NCBI RefSeq assembly: GCF_000026545.1
Contig: NC_011601.1
DNA: 64,000 nt
Strand: one strand, 5' to 3'
Origin: Escherichia coli O127:H6 str. E2348/69
GTDB taxonomy: Bacteria > Pseudomonadota > Gammaproteobacteria > Enterobacterales > Enterobacteriaceae
Made by a program: the position numbers and the translations under genes. Of this stretch, positions 9,202-60,546 are shown piece after piece. The notes under the pieces were generated by a model. The model made no database searches. It saw only the letters and a program-made list of their open reading frames with translations, and was not told the DNA's origin. Every line of letters begins with the position of its first letter. Positions within the stretch are counted from its first letter, which is position 1.

Positions 9202-9789
9202 ATGAATACTTTACGTATTGGCTTAGTTTCCATCTCTGATCGCGCATCCAGCGGCGTTTATCAGGATAAAGGCATCCCTGCGTTGGAAGAATGGCTGACA
9301 TCGGCGCTAACCACGCCGTTTGAACTGGAAACCCGCTTAATCCCCGACGAGCAGGCGATCATCGAGCAAACGTTGTGTGAGCTGGTGGATGAAATGAGTT
9401 GCCATCTGGTGCTCACCACGGGCGGAACTGGCCCGGCGCGTCGTGACGTAACGCCCGATGCGACGCTGGCAGTAGCGGACCGCGAGATGCCTGGCTTTGG
9501 TGAACAGATGCGCCAGATCAGCCTGCATTTTGTACCAACTGCGATCCTTTCGCGTCAGGTGGGCGTGATTCGCAAACAGGCGCTGATCCTTAACTTACCC
9601 GGTCAGCCGAAGTCGATTAAAGAGACGCTGGAAGGCGTGAAGGACGCTGCGGGTAACGTTGTGGTGCATGGTATTTTTGCCAGCGTACCGTACTGCATTC
9701 AGTTGCTGGAAGGGCCATACATTGAAACGGCACCGGAAGTGGTTGCAGCATTCAGACCGAAGAGTGCAAGACGCGACGTTAGCGAATAA
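9202..9789 (+). CDS. mog: molybdopterin adenylyltransferase
   Basis: 195-aa ORF MNTLRIGLVSISDRASSGVY. Confidence 0.9.
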   Translation: MNTLRIGLVSISDRASSGVYQDKGIPALEEWLTSALTTPFELETRLIPDEQAIIEQTLCELVDEMSCHLVLTTGGTGPARRDVTPDATLAVADREMPGFGEQMRQISLHFVPTAILSRQVGVIRKQALILNLPGQPKSIKETLEGVKDAAGNVVVHGIFASVPYCIQLLEGPYIETAPEVVAAFRPKSARRDVSE

Positions 9790-9799
9790 AAAAATCCCC

Positions 9800-9807
9800 C
9801 CGAGCGG
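9800..9807. repeat. left copy of target-site duplication flanking IS50-like element
   Basis: ccgagcgg immediately before the element end; identical 8-mer immediately after the other end at 11358..11365. Confidence 0.6.
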
Positions 9808-11357
9808 CTGTCTCTTATACACAAATCCCCACCCGGGGATTTGTGATGTCTGTCAGTCTGCTTTAGGGGGACTCTTTCCATCCGGTAGTTTCCTTCCTCC
9901 CCGGCAGCGATTTTTTGAACTTTTTCCTCACCCGTTGATCTTCTCTTATATTTCATTTTCTTCGGGTCTGTTATGGTACTTTCTGATTGTTATTCATGGG
10001 CTAACGAGCAGTTTGGACATGCCCGTCTCGGTGATCCGCGTCGTACACGACGCCTTGTGTCACTGGCCTCTTCTCTCGCTCAGCATGCAGGTCTTTCTAT
10101 TGTGAAATCATCCCAGTCCACTGCTCAGGTTGAAGGTGCGTACCGCCTGATACGTAACCCGTCTGTGTCCCCGCAAGCCATTGCCGAAGCCGGATTTACC
10201 GCCACTGTAAGGGCATGTGAGGCTCATCCGCTGCTCCTCGCGCTGGAAGACACCACCACCATTAACTTCAGTCACAGTACGGCATCTGATGACCTGGGGA
10301 ATACCACCACTAACCCGAAGACGCGCGGGCTGCTGGCTCACTCTGTCCTGATGTACGCCCCCGACAGCGCCCTGCCAGTCGGTCTTATCGAACAGCAGCG
10401 CTGGAGTCGTGCCACGGACACCTACGGTGTTAAGCACCAGCGAAAAGAACGTCCCTATGAAGAAAAAGAAAGTTACCGCTGGCAGCAGGCTTCGGAGCGC
10501 ATGGCCGAATGGCTGGGGGAGATACAGAAACGGGTAATCACTGTCTGTGACCGGGAAGCGGATATCTGGCATTACCTGCATTATAAAGTCAGCCACGGGC
10601 AGCGCTTCGTGGTGCGTGCAGCACAGAATCGCCGGCTGGAAGAAGCACCCGGCAAGCTCTTCGAACTGCCGGAAGTCCTGGCAACCGCGGGAAGCCACAC
10701 GCTGAATGTGATGCAAAAAGGCGGGCGGGCAGCCCGCCAGGCCCGGATGTTCATCAGTTACAGCGAAGTCAGCATAAAAAATCCCGACAACAGCGGCCAG
10801 GCGCTCCCGCTCACGTATGTCTGTTGCCGGGAGCAGGCAGAGGACGGCGCCTGCTGGCATCTGCTGACGTCAGAAAAAGTGGCGAGTGCCGCCGATGCGC
10901 GACGTATCGTCAGCCATTACGAGCGACGCTGGCTGATAGAGGAATACCACAAGGCGTGGAAAAGTGGTGGTACATGTGTGGAATCGCTGCGAATGCAGAC
11001 CCGGGATAACCTCGAGCGCATGGTGGTTATCAAGGCGTTTATCGCGGTGCGGGTGCTGGGCCTGCGGCAGGGCGGTATCAGTGAAGAAACACAAAATGAC
11101 AGCTGTGAGAAAATACTGACGCCGACAGAGTGGAAACTGCTGTGGGTTAAGCTGGAAGGAAAACCGCTTCCGTCACAGATGCCGACACTGAAATGGGCCT
11201 GTCTGAAACTGGCGAAACTGGGGCGATGGCATGACAGCAAACGCACCGGTCGCCCCGGTTGGGTAGTCATGTGGGATGGCTGGTTCAGACTTCAGGATAT
11301 GGTTGAGGGTTACCTGGTGATGAAGTCTCTTGATCAGGAGATCTGATCAAGAGACAG
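9808..11357 (+). mobile_element. IS50/Tn5-like insertion sequence (IS4 family), apparently complete
   Basis: left terminus ctgtctcttatacacaaat (17/19 to Tn5 OE, 17/19 to ME); right terminus agatctgatcaagagacag is the exact reverse complement of the Tn5 inside end CTGTCTCTTGATCAGATCT; single transposase ORF reads from the OE-like end and stops inside the IE-like end as in IS50; flanked by direct repeat ccgagcgg. Confidence 0.85.
9973..11346 (+). CDS. IS4-family (IS50-group) DDE transposase
   Basis: 457-aa ORF with Tn5 Tnp hallmarks: LGDPRRT near N-terminus, ALEDTT and VCDREADI (catalytic Asp positions), RWLIEEYHKAWKSG (YREK motif with catalytic Glu); overall only moderately similar to canonical Tn5 Tnp as recalled. 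Confidence 0.85.
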   Translation: MVLSDCYSWANEQFGHARLGDPRRTRRLVSLASSLAQHAGLSIVKSSQSTAQVEGAYRLIRNPSVSPQAIAEAGFTATVRACEAHPLLLALEDTTTINFSHSTASDDLGNTTTNPKTRGLLAHSVLMYAPDSALPVGLIEQQRWSRATDTYGVKHQRKERPYEEKESYRWQQASERMAEWLGEIQKRVITVCDREADIWHYLHYKVSHGQRFVVRAAQNRRLEEAPGKLFELPEVLATAGSHTLNVMQKGGRAARQARMFISYSEVSIKNPDNSGQALPLTYVCCREQAEDGACWHLLTSEKVASAADARRIVSHYERRWLIEEYHKAWKSGGTCVESLRMQTRDNLERMVVIKAFIAVRVLGLRQGGISEETQNDSCEKILTPTEWKLLWVKLEGKPLPSQMPTLKWACLKLAKLGRWHDSKRTGRPGWVVMWDGWFRLQDMVEGYLVMKSLDQEI

Positions 11358-11365
11358 CCGAGCGG
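11358..11365. repeat. right copy of target-site duplication flanking IS50-like element
   Basis: ccgagcgg, identical to 9800..9807; the two flanks reconstitute the C6-GAGC-G6 hairpin expected at this site. Confidence 0.6.
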
Positions 11366-11381
11366 GGGGATCTCAAAACAA

Positions 11382-11948
11382 TTAGTGGGATTCACCAATC
11401 GGCAGAACGGTGCGACCAAACTGCTCGTTCAGTACTTCACCCATCGCCAGATAGATTGCGCTGGCACCGCAGATCAGACCAATCCAGCCGGCAAAGTGGA
11501 TGATTGCGGCGTTACCGGCAATGTTACCGATCGCCAGCAGGGCAAACAGCACGGTCAGGCTAAAGAAAACGAATTGCAGAACGCGTGCGCCTTTCAGCGT
11601 GCCGAAGAACATAAACAGCGTAAATACGCCCCACAGACCCAGGTAGGCACCAAGGAACTGTGCATTTGGCGCATCGGTCAGACCCAGTTTCGGCATCAGC
11701 AGAATCGCAACCAGCGTCAGCCAGAAAGAACCGTAAGAGGTGAATGCGGTTAAACCGAAAGTGTTGCCTTTTTTGTACTCCAGCAGACCGGCAAAAATTT
11801 GCGCGATGCCGCCGTAGAAAATGCCCATGGCAAGAATAATACCGTCCAGAGCAAAATAACCCACGTTGTGCAGGTTAAGCAGAATGGTGGTCATGCCGAA
11901 GCCCATCAGGCCCAGCGGTGCCGGATTAGCCAACTTAGTGTTGCCCAT
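11382..11948 (-). CDS. satP: succinate-acetate/proton symporter
   Basis: 188-aa membrane ORF MGNTKLANPAPLGLMGFGMTTILLNLHN (YaaH/GPR1 family). Confidence 0.9.
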   Translation of the reverse strand: MGNTKLANPAPLGLMGFGMTTILLNLHNVGYFALDGIILAMGIFYGGIAQIFAGLLEYKKGNTFGLTAFTSYGSFWLTLVAILLMPKLGLTDAPNAQFLGAYLGLWGVFTLFMFFGTLKGARVLQFVFFSLTVLFALLAIGNIAGNAAIIHFAGWIGLICGASAIYLAMGEVLNEQFGRTVLPIGESH

Positions 11949-23648: not shown

Positions 23649-23692
23649 ACATTTGTACTTTGCAGGCCGAATTTTGGCCTGCAGATGGATAT

Positions 23693-23720
23693 AAAAAAAC
23701 CCGCCAGAGCGGGTTTTTTT
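23693..23720. terminator. bidirectional rho-independent terminator (nhaR / rpsT)
   Basis: aaaaaaa-cccgc-cagagcggg-ttttttt: hairpin flanked by A-run and T-run between convergent genes. Confidence 0.6.
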
Positions 23721-23743
23721 ACAAAGCTGACAACAACAGGCAA

Positions 23744-30139: not shown

Positions 30140-30204
30140 GTCATTAGCAGCCTAAGTTATGCGAAAATGCCGGTCTTGTTACCGGCATTTTTTATGGAGA
30201 AAAC

Positions 30205-58191: not shown

Positions 58192-60546
58192 TCACAAAGT
58201 GTTTTGATACGGCAGAATGTTCGAACGCAGCATCTCTTGCGTACCCAGACCGTAGTTGGAGCTCAGGCCGCGAAGTTCGATGTTAAAGCCGATTGCGTTG
58301 TCATATACCGCATGTTGTTTATCGTTATCCCAACCGTTCAGCTTCCGCTCGTAACCGACGCGAATCGCATAGCAGCAGGAGCTGTATTGCACACCTAACA
58401 TAGAGTCGGCTTGCTTGTTCGCATTGGTGTCGTAGTAGTAGGCCCCAACAATGGACCAACGATCGGCAATTGGCCAGCTGGCGACGGCACCTACCTGCGA
58501 AATACCATTCTTATATTGCTCAGCAGTGGAATAGTACTTAGGCAGCGTTGCCTGAATATATTCCGGGCTGGCGTAACGGTAATTCAGCTGTACCAGACGG
58601 TCTTCATCCCGACGGTATTCAATGCTGGAGTTACTGGTCGCTACGTTATCCAGACGTGTATCGTACTGAATCCCGCCACGCAATCCCCAACGATCAGAGA
58701 TGCGCCAGTAAGTATCGCCTGCCCATACCAGTGAGCCCGTTTTGTCGTCATTCTCCCATGTTATGTTGTCATCGCCAGTGCGAGACTCCGTGAAATAGTA
58801 GATTTGACCAACGGAAATATTAAAACGTTCAACGGCAGCATCATCATATATGCGAGATGTGACACCGGTCGTCACCTGGTTAGCGGAGGCAATACGGTCA
58901 AGACCGCCGTAAGTCCGGTCCCGGAACAGGCCGGAGTAGTCAGATTGCAGCAGCGACGAGTCGTAGTTATAGATTTTGCTCTGATCGCGATATGGCACAT
59001 ACAGATACTGCGCGCGTGGTTCCAGTGTCTGGGTATAGCCCGGCGCCAGCATTTCCATATCACGCTCGAAGACCATTCTACCGTCTACCTTGAACTGCGG
59101 CATTACACGGTTAGCGGACTCTGCCAGCCTGGTCGTGTTTCTGGAGTTATACCAGTCAAGATTGGTTTGCTGATAATGGGTTGCCAGCAACTTCGCTTCA
59201 GTATTGATGCTGCCCCAGTTATTAGAGAGCGGCAGATTGATGGTCGGTTCCAGGTGAACACGAGTCGCCTCTGGCATGTCATCTCTGGTGTTAACAAAGT
59301 GCACTGCCTGGCCGTAAATACGCGTATCGAAAGGACCGACATCGTTTTGATAGTAGTTAACGTCTAACTGCGGTTCTGCCGAGTAGCTACTGGTGTTCTG
59401 CTCGCTGAAGACCTGGAACTGCTTGGTTGAAACGGTGGCATTGAAGTTTTGCACCGCATAGCCAACGCTGAATTTTTGCGTTGCATAGCCGTCGGTACTG
59501 GAACCGTATTTGTTATCGAAGTCATTGAAGTAGCTAGGATCGCTGACTTTGGTGTAGTCGACGTTGAAACGCCACACCTGATCCATGACCCCGGAGTGTT
59601 TCCAGTAGAACAACCAACGACGTGAACTGTCATCGTTCGGGTGTTCATCTTTATAGACTTTATCTGAAGGCAGATAGTCCAGTTCCATCAAGCCAGCGCC
59701 CGCCTGGGAGAGGTAGCGGAATTCGTTCTCCCACATGATGTTGCCACGACGATGCATATAATGCGGCGTGATGGTGGCATCCATATTTGGCGCGATGTTC
59801 CAGTAATATGGCAGGTAGAACTCAAAGTAGTTGGTGGTGGTGTACTTGGCGTTCGGGATCAAGAAACCAGAGCGACGTTTGTCACCCACCGGCAACTGCA
59901 AATACGGGCTATAAAAGATCGGTACCGGACCCACCTTAAAGCGGGCGTTCCAGATCTCCGCAACTTGTTCTTCGCGGTCATGAATAATTTCGCTCCCCAC
60001 CACGCTCCAGGTGTCAGAACCCGGCAGACAGGAGGTAAAGCTACCGTTATCCAGAATGGTATAGCGGTTTTCGCCACGTTGTTTCATCAGGTCCGCTTTA
60101 CCGCGACCCTGGCGACCTACCATCTGGTAATCACCTTCCCAGACGTTGGTATCTTTGGTGTTCAGATTCGCCCAGCCTTTCGGCCCTTTGAGGATCACCT
60201 GGTTATCGTCGTAATGGACATTACCGAGCGCATCAACGGTACGCACCGGCTCCGGTTGTCCTGGTGCCTCTTTTTGATGGAGCTGCACTTCGTCGGCCTG
60301 CAGACGGCTGTTACCCTGCATGATATCCACGCTGCCAGTAAACACGGCGTCATCCGGGTAGTCCCCTTTCGCGTGGTCAGCATTGATAGTCACGGGTAAG
60401 TCATTGGTATCGCCCTGTACCAGAGGACGGTCATAGCTTGGCACGCCCAACATGCACTGTGAGGCGAGGTCGGCTGCCAGTCCCTGTTGACTATAAAGGG
60501 CGGTGGCAATCATGGTGGCCAGGAGAGTGGGGATACGTTTTTTCAT
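58192..60546 (-). CDS. lptD: LPS assembly outer-membrane protein
   Basis: 784-aa [28 protein letters not shown]-terminal ...LPYQNTL. Confidence 0.95.

Follow-up and report, generated by a model that had tools for sequence, protein, structure and literature searches.

A subterminal hairpin in ISEc13 as a probable, degraded member of a family of anti-read-through terminators in IS50-like insertion sequences

The DNA analysed here (the window) is a 64,000-nucleotide stretch of Escherichia coli O127:H6 str. E2348/69 (NC_011601.1), in which a copy of the insertion sequence ISEc13 lies between mog and satP. The element and its insertion site comprise the following features.

9808..11357: ISEc13 (IS4 family, IS50 subgroup), 1,550 bp
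9808..9826, plus strand: left 19-bp terminal sequence CTGTCTCTTATACACAAAT, like the IS50 OE (17/19 positions)
9973..11346, plus strand: transposase gene, 457 aa, with Tnp_DNA_bind, DDE_Tnp_1 and Dimer_Tnp_Tn5 domains
11325..11355, plus strand: 13-bp perfect inverted repeat at the right end, GTCTCTTGATCAG/CTGATCAAGAGAC, extending across the stop codon of tnp and the terminal sequence
11339..11357, minus strand: right 19-bp terminal sequence, reading inward CTGTCTCTTGATCAGATCT
9800..9807, no strand: target-site duplication, left copy, 8 bp, CCGAGCGG
11358..11365, no strand: target-site duplication, right copy, 8 bp, CCGAGCGG
9795..9801, no strand: 5′ arm TCCCCCC of the host mog/satP intergenic hairpin, its partner GGGGGGA now at 11364-11370

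The transposase gene carries the RefSeq product name 'IS4-like element ISEc13 family transposase', and its product is a DDE transposase with the Tn5-type N-terminal DNA-binding and C-terminal dimerisation domains expected of the IS50 subgroup of the IS4 family. Matches to PF14706 (1.4e-19) and PF01609 (1.3e-7) pass their cutoffs, and the match to PF02281 (24.1 bits) falls just below its cutoff of 26.7 bits. The IS50 OE sequence compared with the left end was checked against plasmids bearing IS50R; TTATACACA, inside the left terminal sequence, is the DnaA box in IS50, and the right terminal sequence is presumably identical to the IS50 IE. The ends of the element (CTGTCTCTT...) and its 8-bp duplication agree with the CT... 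terminal repeats and 8-9 bp target duplications given for the subgroup (PMC2266710). ISEc13 reaches up to ~30 copies per genome, with ~30 in the enteropathogenic strain (EPEC) E2348/69, and the copies are 94-100% identical.

The 8-bp duplication was verified by comparison with the empty mog/satP site, which is found in 5,404 of 5,426 E. coli genomes. ISEc13 and its relatives insert into the tops of CCCC-N8-GGGG hairpins, often host terminators, and the loop of the target hairpin becomes the target-site duplication; in the present case the satP/mog terminator was split. Since hairpin tops of this kind often belong to host terminators, incoming read-through would be a regular hazard for these elements. 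Palindromic or hairpin DNA is also the target of other insertion sequences, such as the REP-targeting elements, among them ISRm22 of the IS4 family (PMC1525189). ISEc13 and its relatives resemble these in occupying GC-rich hairpin tops with duplication of the loop, but their targets are diverse single-copy hairpins or terminators sharing the CCCC-N8-GGGG outline rather than a repeated REP family. Hairpin-top targeting was not reported for the IS50 subgroup in the literature searched.

Between the left end and the transposase gene, the following features are relevant to transcription entering from mog.

9820..9845, plus strand: hairpin, 11-bp perfect stem (9820-9830/9835-9845), loop ACCC (9831-9834)
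9823-9830/9835-9842, plus strand: family-conserved hairpin core AAATCCCC/GGGGATTT
9840..9852, plus strand: degraded U-tract TTTGTGATGTCTG (T6-9 in relatives)
9843..9908, plus strand: 66-nt pyrimidine-rich segment between the hairpin and the T-run/TTGAAC, only in ISEc13 and a K-12 relic
9911..9920, plus strand: T6 run (9911-9916) overlapping TTGAAC (9915-9920), a family-conserved -35-like hexamer
9937..9940, plus strand: single GATC downstream of TTGAAC, where relatives and IS50 have GATCnGATC

A preliminary description of the sequence had noted a perfect 8-bp stem with a 4-nt loop at 9823-9842 (AAATCCCC-ACCC-GGGGATTT). The sequence is present exactly there and the stem is real, but its length was understated, as the perfect inverted repeat extends to 11 bp, with arms CACAAATCCCC (9820-9830) and GGGGATTTGTG (9835-9845); the three outer CAC/GTG pairs are specific to ISEc13. 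The overlap with the 19-bp terminus that had been pointed out amounts to its last 4 nt in the 8-bp reading and 7 nt in the 11-bp reading, and the distance to the transposase start, put at about 130 bp, is borne out by the annotated ATG at 9973, 131 nt after 9842. The hairpin folds as RNA with -18.6 kcal/mol (z = -4.9), a value equalled by none of 200 dinucleotide shuffles, and thus forms the stable GC-containing stem-loop expected of an intrinsic terminator in nascent RNA. The window has 6 loci with a perfect hairpin of 11 bp or more and a loop of 3-8 nt, compared with an average of 0.1 in shuffled windows; a chance palindrome was ruled out by the shuffles and by the conservation described below. 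RNA folding of the 5′ leader, which the preliminary description had proposed as a check, was performed both on the whole leader (minimum free energy and centroid) and in the mog read-through context, and in every case the hairpin paired with itself. It begins 12 nt inside the left end (IS nt 13-38), leaving no space for an internal promoter upstream. Consequently, on the sense strand it would be present only in read-through RNA and absent from the native transposase mRNA.

The promoter of that mRNA is presumably marked by TTGAAC (IS nt 108-113) as its -35-like hexamer. A consensus scan of both strands of 9600-11600 found no strong sigma-70 site, so the promoter is placed solely by the conserved TTGAAC and GATC; in IS50, Dam sites (GATC) control the T1 promoter (PMC4265352). 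The 66-nt segment separates this region from the hairpin in ISEc13, is absent from the closest relatives, and blurs the homology of the 3′ arm and tail. Within it, a second hairpin was considered as the actual terminator and set aside, as RNAalifold on the ISEc13 clade and relics gave weak support (covariation term -0.22, one compensatory pair). Likewise, a degenerate second left end at ~9866-9884 (GACTCTT...) was rejected by inspection because its spacing does not fit. The leader at 9880-9957 has a C/G ratio of 2.3, which exceeds the window's 99th percentile, and is rut-like. A search of 9700-10100 against Rfam returned no family at E ≤ 1.

To place the hairpin in its family, we turned to the relatives of ISEc13. 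A hairpin occupies the same place in ~36 distinct relatives (transposase identity 38-77%), which share the layout of a 19-bp end, AAATCCC, a variable complementary inner stem, GGGATTT, T6-9 and the -35-like TTGAAC, the hairpin always beginning at IS nt 16-19. Carriers include elements of Vibrio, Photobacterium, Xenorhabdus, Photorhabdus, Alishewanella, Shewanella, Pseudoalteromonas and Rheinheimera, and the closest relatives (Enterobacterales, Salmonella, Serratia) likewise have the hairpin, T6-9 and TTGAAC. Around 20 family members, including ISPlu9-like ones and IS50, lack the hairpin. In alignments ISEc13 shares the start of the hairpin at IS nt 16-19 and the AAATCCC/GGGATTT outer pairs; it departs from the direct succession of hairpin, T6-9 and TTGAAC, with 66 nt intervening and a degraded adjacent tail.

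Among 28 distinct sequences, which were picked for having the hairpin, 96.9% of inner-stem cells can pair (34.9-65.6% in slid controls), and double changes affect 7 of 12 pairs, in 60 cells compared with 2-13 in slid controls. The covariation score was reached by none of 500 shuffles, and RNAalifold independently recovered the identical helix. The inner half-sites thus conserve complementarity but not sequence. The structure is also strand-biased: sense-strand folds contain 24 G.U pairs and antisense folds 2, and among 36 relatives the sense strand is the more stable in 25 and the antisense strand in 4 (Wilcoxon p = 1.6e-5). Together with the long T-run, which occurs on the plus strand only, the G.U bias gives no sign of the bidirectional termination known from IS200. 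On these sequence comparisons, the subterminal hairpin is best described as an RNA element acting on transcripts from outside.

Terminator potential was scored with the discriminant d of d'Aubenton Carafa et al. 1990, combined with modern energies, so that its threshold is approximate. Of 61 unique left ends, 32 had positive values, ranging from +4 to +68, and in each of these the hairpin spans nt 18/19 to 38-42; controls gave +36 (thrL attenuator), +22 (rrnB T1), +1 (lambda tR2) and -56 (IS50). A tract of about 6-9 U follows the stem directly in 32 relatives as well as the K-12 relic but not in ISEc13, whose tail is UUUGUGAUGU and whose tail positions 4, 6 and 7 are G, G and A. Three T-to-G changes produced this tail from the U-run, two of which lengthen the stem (GTG pairing with CAC). 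For the tail UUUGUGAUGUCU, nT is 2.78 (3.9-5.0 in relatives) and d is -13, below the threshold, lambda tR2 and all good family members; a simple terminator scan did not call the hairpin.

Copies of the element differ in ways that preserve the structure. The hairpin is retained in all intact ISEc13-type copies examined and in a ~76% diverged relic, and the changes in intact variants (A-to-G giving G.U, loop changes, a loop deletion) all leave the pairing in place; two truncated, dead copies show two disrupted pairs. Downstream of rluA, most E. coli carry an old ISEc13-like relic with a 9-bp stem followed by T6GT3 (d = +28 to +38); it has kept this stem with its terminal repeat decayed at 3-4 of 19 positions, which suggests that rluA in most E. 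coli is now terminated by an IS-derived hairpin. Term-seq data, including Adams et al. 2021 and TERMITe, yielded no usable 3′ ends for rluA (K-12) or mog (E2348/69); termination at the relic therefore remains a prediction.

Our favoured reading, held with moderate confidence, is that the hairpin is the ISEc13 version, now degraded, of an intrinsic (Rho-independent) terminator found just inside the left end in a large clade of the IS50 subgroup, where it lies between the terminal repeat and the promoter of the transposase gene. From the observed structure, conservation, covariation and strand specificity, together with the terminator-like scores of the relatives, we infer termination, the promoter position and a residual activity in ISEc13 as follows. 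The target would be only those transcripts that begin outside the element and cross its left end, which in this case means read-through from mog. While RNA polymerase is leaving the 19-bp end, the nascent RNA would fold into the stem, and in typical members the U6-9 run would then release the transcript ahead of TTGAAC and the transposase reading frame. Transposase synthesis would thus be set by the element's own weak promoter, independent of the insertion site. In ISEc13 the device appears degraded, with the stem cut to a CCCC/GGGG core with A-U pairs, the U-run spoiled and 66 nt placed before T6-TTGAAC, and its present activity most likely amounts to pausing or leaky termination, short of an efficient stop. 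The earlier suggestion that the hairpin may block read-through from mog is supported by comparison (~36 relatives with compensatory changes, sense-specific G.U pairs, T6-9 before TTGAAC) and weakened for ISEc13 itself, where the degraded U-run and the score below threshold mean that blocking may be only partial; the hairpin probably still pauses or partly terminates this read-through.

The main competitor, which we regard as possible but clearly less likely, is that the terminator is vestigial: it would share the origin proposed above and have no present effect in ISEc13, with the stem persisting only through the youth of the element and clonal spread, and any insulation coming from elsewhere, for example from Rho acting on the C-rich untranslated leader or from weak translation signals. 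The broken U-run with its negative score, the uncoupling of the hairpin from the T6 run by the 66-nt insert, the rut-like leader and the near identity of the copies, which allows little time for decay, are all consistent with this account. However, pairing was kept in all intact variants through a G.U change and a loop deletion, the very T-to-G changes that spoiled the U-run extended the stem to 11 perfect pairs instead of eroding it, the stem is still present in the much older K-12 relic, and a hairpin of this stability followed by UUU is a plausible pause site or partial terminator.

The remaining explanations are far less probable. The preliminary description had raised a host-factor site as an alternative, and a DNA palindrome bound by transposase, DnaA, Fis, IHF or another host factor could modulate end recognition, given that nt 13-19 of the end bound by transposase, and the DnaA-box-like TTATACACA, share bases with the 5′ arm. 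This is improbable, as the inner stem in relatives is conserved in pairing and not in sequence, G.U pairs would be G-T/A-C mismatched half-sites with a strong strand bias, and the T-run is always on one side only. We give still less credence to a fold-back of the IS10/IS50 type, in which upstream sequence present only in read-through RNA pairs with the transposase ribosome-binding site or start codon. The mechanism is known from the two best-studied relatives and was the analogy originally drawn, but it does not carry over: both arms are local, the whole-leader folds leave the hairpin self-paired with the AUG ~130 nt away, the hairpins of the family directly precede the -35-like hexamer and come with a U-run, and IS50 itself has no such hairpin. 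Equally remote is a role as terminator or 3′ stabiliser of an outward, minus-strand antisense transcript, like the RNA-OUT end in IS10. The perfect palindrome of ISEc13 folds equally on both strands and AUUUGUGUAU follows on the minus strand; against this, in 25 of 36 relatives folding of the minus strand is the weaker, since G.U turns into C.A there, the long T-run lies on the plus strand only, and the scan of 9600-11600 showed no promoter-like site on either strand.

Judged by layout, the proper analogue of the ISEc13 hairpin is the left-end terminator of IS200 rather than the start-site occlusion of IS10/IS50. In IS200, a Rho-independent terminator at nts 12-34 shields tnpA from impinging transcription (Beuzon et al. 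1999, summarised in PMC4513863). As in ISEc13 (nt 13-38), the stem-loop starts ~12 nt in from the left end and precedes both the promoter of the transposase gene and its transcription start, and its role, predicted for ISEc13, is to stop outside transcripts. The families are unrelated (IS200 belongs to IS200/IS605, with a Y1 HUH transposase), and the IS200 terminator is described as bidirectional and was experimentally tested, whereas the IS50-subgroup one is sense-biased and predicted, and ISEc13 lacks a clean U-run. Canonical E. coli terminators (the thrL attenuator at 274-307 of the window, rrnB T1, lambda tR2) share the GC-rich stem and short loop, and the relatives, with their U6-9 tail, reach comparable scores; ISEc13 differs in its interrupted tail and low d, and in sitting in a mobile element rather than at the 3′ end of a gene. 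ISEc13 and IS50 belong to the same subgroup, with OE-like and IE-like ends and GATC near the promoter in common, but only 6 nt separate the OE from CTGAAC in IS50, and its best-scoring candidate is the one at -56. In IS10, Davis, Simons and Kleckner (1985), and in IS50, Krebs and Reznikoff (1986) and Schulz and Reznikoff (1991), are said to have found that RNA structure in read-through transcripts occludes the transposase translation start. The biological purpose would be the same as that of the ISEc13-type hairpin, with translational occlusion in one case and transcription termination in the other. In the literature searched, ISEc13 appeared only in resistome or mobilome listings and no subterminal terminator was described for the IS50 subgroup; the IS4-family review (PMC2266710) mentions no terminator or hairpin for it.

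A wider proposal, which we advance tentatively, is that a Tn5/IS50-like clade has specialised for GC-rich hairpin tops (CCCC-N8-GGGG, frequently host intrinsic terminators) and brings along a portable replacement terminator at its left end, with which the upstream host gene would regain termination and the transposase would be insulated. ISEc13 might then be a lineage in mid-remodelling that has lost the U-run, extended the stem and gained the C-rich 66-nt leader, maybe handing insulation over to Rho.

Tn5/IS50 is the textbook model for keeping transposase low, and the defence against outside promoters known from it acts at the level of translation. Many natural relatives seem to rely on something different and simpler, namely a terminator to which the final four bases of the terminal repeat contribute. 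Such an anti-read-through device can evidently decay in a highly successful element: ISEc13 has thrived despite its degraded U-run, and efficient termination is thus evidently not essential. The hairpins of the relatives also provide a set of short terminators whose natural variation already includes compensatory mutants. For neighbouring genes, ISEc13 insertions are predicted to cause left-side polarity together with loss of the split host terminator, here that of satP/mog.

The window is the beginning of the E. coli O127:H6 E2348/69 chromosome, and ISEc13 was found to be 100% identical to, and at identical coordinates in, NZ_LT827011.1. RefSeq annotation places tal, mog, the transposase gene and satP in this region. 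The left end of the element (CTGTCTCTTATACACAAAT) shares 17 of 19 positions with the IS50 outside end, a sequence confirmed at 100% against IS50R-bearing plasmids. The right end, read inward, is CTGTCTCTTGATCAGATCT, the IS50 inside end. The 457-aa transposase contains Tnp_DNA_bind and DDE_Tnp_1 domains, with a Tn5 dimerisation domain close to threshold.

Features of ISEc13 and of the K-12 relic
9808-11357: ISEc13, 1,550 bp
9820-9830 with 9835-9845, + strand: left-end hairpin, perfect 11-bp inverted repeat, loop ACCC
9843-9908: 66-nt pyrimidine-rich segment, only in ISEc13 and the K-12 relic, absent from the closest relatives
9973-11346, + strand: 'IS4-like element ISEc13 family transposase'
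11325-11337 and 11343-11355: right-end 13-bp perfect inverted repeat, GTCTCTTGATCAG / CTGATCAAGAGAC, spacer GAGAT, spanning the transposase stop codon and the terminal repeat
L011:2001-2050 (K-12 MG1655, ~59,609-59,652 in U00096-like coordinates), minus strand: rluA relic hairpin followed by T6GT3, terminator score d = +28

The preliminary description reported an 8-bp stem at the left end; its sequence was as given, but the perfect inverted repeat extends to 11 bp. Starting 12 nt inside ISEc13, the hairpin takes in the final 4-7 nt of the 19-bp terminus and stops 131 nt short of the transposase ATG, in agreement with the placement originally described (overlapping the terminus, about 130 bp before the transposase start). 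As RNA it folds at -18.6 kcal/mol (z = -4.9; 0/200 shuffles as good), and it remains closed and local when folded within the whole leader or in the mog read-through context. The window has six loci with perfect hairpins of such size, compared with 0.1 in each shuffled window; besides the left-end hairpin, the remaining five include the ISEc13 right end, the tal terminator and the thr attenuator. Perfect hairpins of at least 11 bp at 23692-23721 (13 bp) and 30164-30191 (11 bp) also came from this chance-expectation scan.

A protein search identified a large family of relatives (77-48% identity), a profile-based scan using one genome per species gave 80 loci (38-56% identity) from Vibrio, Photobacterium, Xenorhabdus, Photorhabdus, Alishewanella, Shewanella, Pseudoalteromonas, Rheinheimera and others, and four nearer relatives were obtained by exact protein look-up. 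The left ends of ~36 distinct elements share one order: the 19-bp terminus, AAATCCC, 4-6 variable nucleotides, a loop of 3-6 nt, a stretch complementary to the variable nucleotides, GGGATTT with additional T's (6-9 altogether in the run) and TTGAAC, with GATCnGATC ~16-18 nt past TTGAAC. This compact form, with leaders of 104-110 nt, is shared by the three nearest relatives whose genes are intact (71-77% identity; an Enterobacterales element, Salmonella salamae and Serratia). Some 20 family members, including ISPlu9-like elements and several deep branches, have no hairpin at this place, and in IS50 just 6 nt separate the outside end from CTGAAC. At the right end, the inner copy AAGTCTCTTGA is almost invariant in the hairpin-bearing clade, synonymous sites included, and is missing from ISPlu9-like members.

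Twenty-eight distinct hairpin-bearing left ends were aligned using MAFFT, giving a 12-pair helix. Standard pairs filled 96.9% of helix cells, compared with 34.9-65.6% after the 3′ partners were slid by 1-3 columns, although selecting sequences for having the hairpin inflates this percentage; compensatory diversity of the inner stem is not inflated in this way. Both-sided changes were observed in seven pairs (60 cells; slid controls, 2-13). In 500 column shuffles the observed pairing or covariation score was never reached, and RNAalifold, unprompted, returned exactly the same helix. The outer pairs (AAAT/ATTT, CCC/GGG) are uninformative either way because they are almost invariant.

When 36 hairpins were folded on each strand, G.U pairs numbered 24 on the transposase-sense strand and two on the antisense strand. 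The sense fold was the more stable in 25/36 and the antisense fold in 4/36 (Wilcoxon p = 1.6e-5, indicative only because the sequences are related). The sense bias of G.U pairs, together with a T-run found on the sense side only, points to an RNA element read by polymerase entering from outside the left end. The same two properties disfavour a minus-strand terminator and a double-stranded protein-binding palindrome, and thus speak against the host-factor site that had been suggested as an alternative.

All unique left ends were then scored by the d'Aubenton Carafa discriminant (d), used here with ViennaRNA energies, so that the zero threshold is approximate.

Terminator scores (d)
Family left ends above zero (32/61): +4 to +68
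K-12 rluA relic variants: +28 to +38
thrL attenuator (control): +36
rrnB T1 (control): +22
lambda tR2 (control): +1
ISEc13-type copies: -13 to -27
IS50: -56

In all 32 positive members the hairpin lies from IS nucleotide 18/19 to 38-42. The ISEc13-type copies fail because of their tail, UUUGUGAUGUCU (U-score 2.78 versus 3.9-5.0), and a GC core of just four pairs. U-runs are also independently weakened at four relatives' loci, L028, L024, L076 and L097 (ATTTGTGAAC, ATTTATTGAAC, ATTTTTGGAAC and GTTTTTGAAC; d -34 to -2), suggesting that terminator erosion may be recurrent; L028 carries a CAC/GTG stem extension as in ISEc13.

The leader, in several identity classes, was detected in 3,153/5,426 E. 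coli genomes, and eleven representative copies were aligned with the window copy. A ~76% identical relic downstream of rluA is fixed in K-12 and most other E. coli. Its hairpin, AAATCCCCG-AGTC-CGGGGATTT followed by TTTTTTGTTTC, is on sequence grounds a textbook terminator in form, and was kept while 3-4 of 19 positions of the terminal repeat mutated. It is the only terminator-like structure directly after rluA and may serve as the predicted rapA-rluA terminator. Compared with the relic tail, that of ISEc13 carries three T-to-G changes and one G-to-A change, and its stem has grown from 8 to 11 pairs because CAC in the terminal repeat now has two of these G's as partners. In both ISEc13 and the relic, 66-77 nt separate the hairpin from a T6 run (9911-9916) and TTGAAC (9915-9920). 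MAFFT preferentially places the relatives' hairpin opposite 9893-9916, where TCCTCCCCGGCA (9896-9907) looks like the 5′ arm seen in the Salmonella and Serratia stems and is partnerless; comparative support for a second structure inside the insert is weak. At 9880-9957 the leader has a rut-like composition, unusually high in C and low in G (C/G 2.3, >99th percentile of the window), so Rho might act on untranslated read-through RNA.

Full-length or recently decayed ISEc13-type copies retain the stem, their variants being an A-to-G change (giving G.U), a loop A-to-T change, loss of the outermost pair and a 2-nt loop deletion leaving nine pairs. Truncated, transposase-less left-end relics beside fbpC (L008:2001-2154, L009:2001-2143) carry two stem mismatches (AAATAACC...GGAGATTT), consistent with lost constraint in dead copies. 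For ISEc13 itself, a modest preference goes to a hairpin that now pauses polymerase or terminates leakily; the main rival, a purely vestigial stem, appears rather unlikely.

ISEc13 is flanked by an 8-bp target duplication, CCGAGCGG, and 5,404 of 5,426 complete E. coli genomes carry the reconstructed empty site without interruption. There, between the convergent mog and satP genes, the sequence forms a hairpin, TCCCCCC-GAGC-GGGGGGA, whose top ISEc13 split. Most of the empty sites reconstructed from 24 family insertions that have exact 8-10 bp duplications fold as a GC-rich hairpin with the duplication at its centre, often bordered by A- and T-runs, as host intrinsic terminators are.

Hairpin-top sites with a CCCC-(8-10 bp duplication)-GGGG outline
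Window: 9795-9807 and 11358-11370
Loci of ISEc13 copies and relatives: L019, L024, L042, L045, L047-L049, L053, L055, L057, L064, L070, L080, L099-L103

All six independent ISEc13 sites show CCCC-(8-9 bp duplication)-GGGG; two lie within genes (dgcJ, trhA), which suggests that a motif of sequence or structure is targeted and not terminators in themselves. No strict orientation bias was evident among the insertions examined. The split host hairpin (9790-9807 / 11358-11375) scores as a strong canonical terminator for satP (minus strand, U7 tail, d = +45), with no canonical terminator score toward mog (d = -17). With the predicted satP terminator lost, satP transcripts should run antisense into the right end and through ISEc13. 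The surviving 5′ arm (AAATCCCC, 9792-9799) is a perfect complement of the IS hairpin 3′ arm at 9835-9842, 35 nt apart, a possible alternative, less favourable pairing in mog read-through RNA. Splitting host terminators would make read-through into the element a routine hazard, and hence a reason to carry a terminator.

Sequence comparison shows that the ISEc13 hairpin is homologous to the covarying, sense-strand-specific, U-run-followed hairpin of many relatives. Because any internal promoter would have to lie downstream of it, the sense-strand hairpin is present in read-through RNA only. The family hairpin would act as an intrinsic terminator halting outside transcription directly before the transposase promoter, to which the -35-like TTGAAC would belong. 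From the relatives' terminator anatomy, the purpose originally proposed, protection against mog read-through, is probably right; its efficiency in ISEc13 is doubtful. The suggested mechanism did not hold: in IS10 and IS50 the protection comes from read-through transcripts having their translation start occluded (papers of 1985-1991), whereas the ISEc13 hairpin leaves the transposase start region untouched in the leader fold. The GATC pair farther downstream marks, in IS50, the Dam-controlled T1 promoter (PMC4265352). The closest analogue, alike in placement and purpose, is the left-end Rho-independent terminator of IS200 (nts 12-34), which 'protects against impinging transcription' (PMC4513863); unlike ISEc13, IS200 belongs to an unrelated transposon family, and its terminator is reported to be bidirectional.

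Rfam holds no family for the hairpin, and the literature searched contains no description of the feature for ISEc13 or the IS50 subgroup. Locally, the ISEc13 hairpin is an element of an ordinary type in degraded form. Across IS50-like elements, neither a conserved subterminal terminator nor hairpin-top targeting appears to have been reported, and the interest of the hairpin lies mostly at the level of the family.
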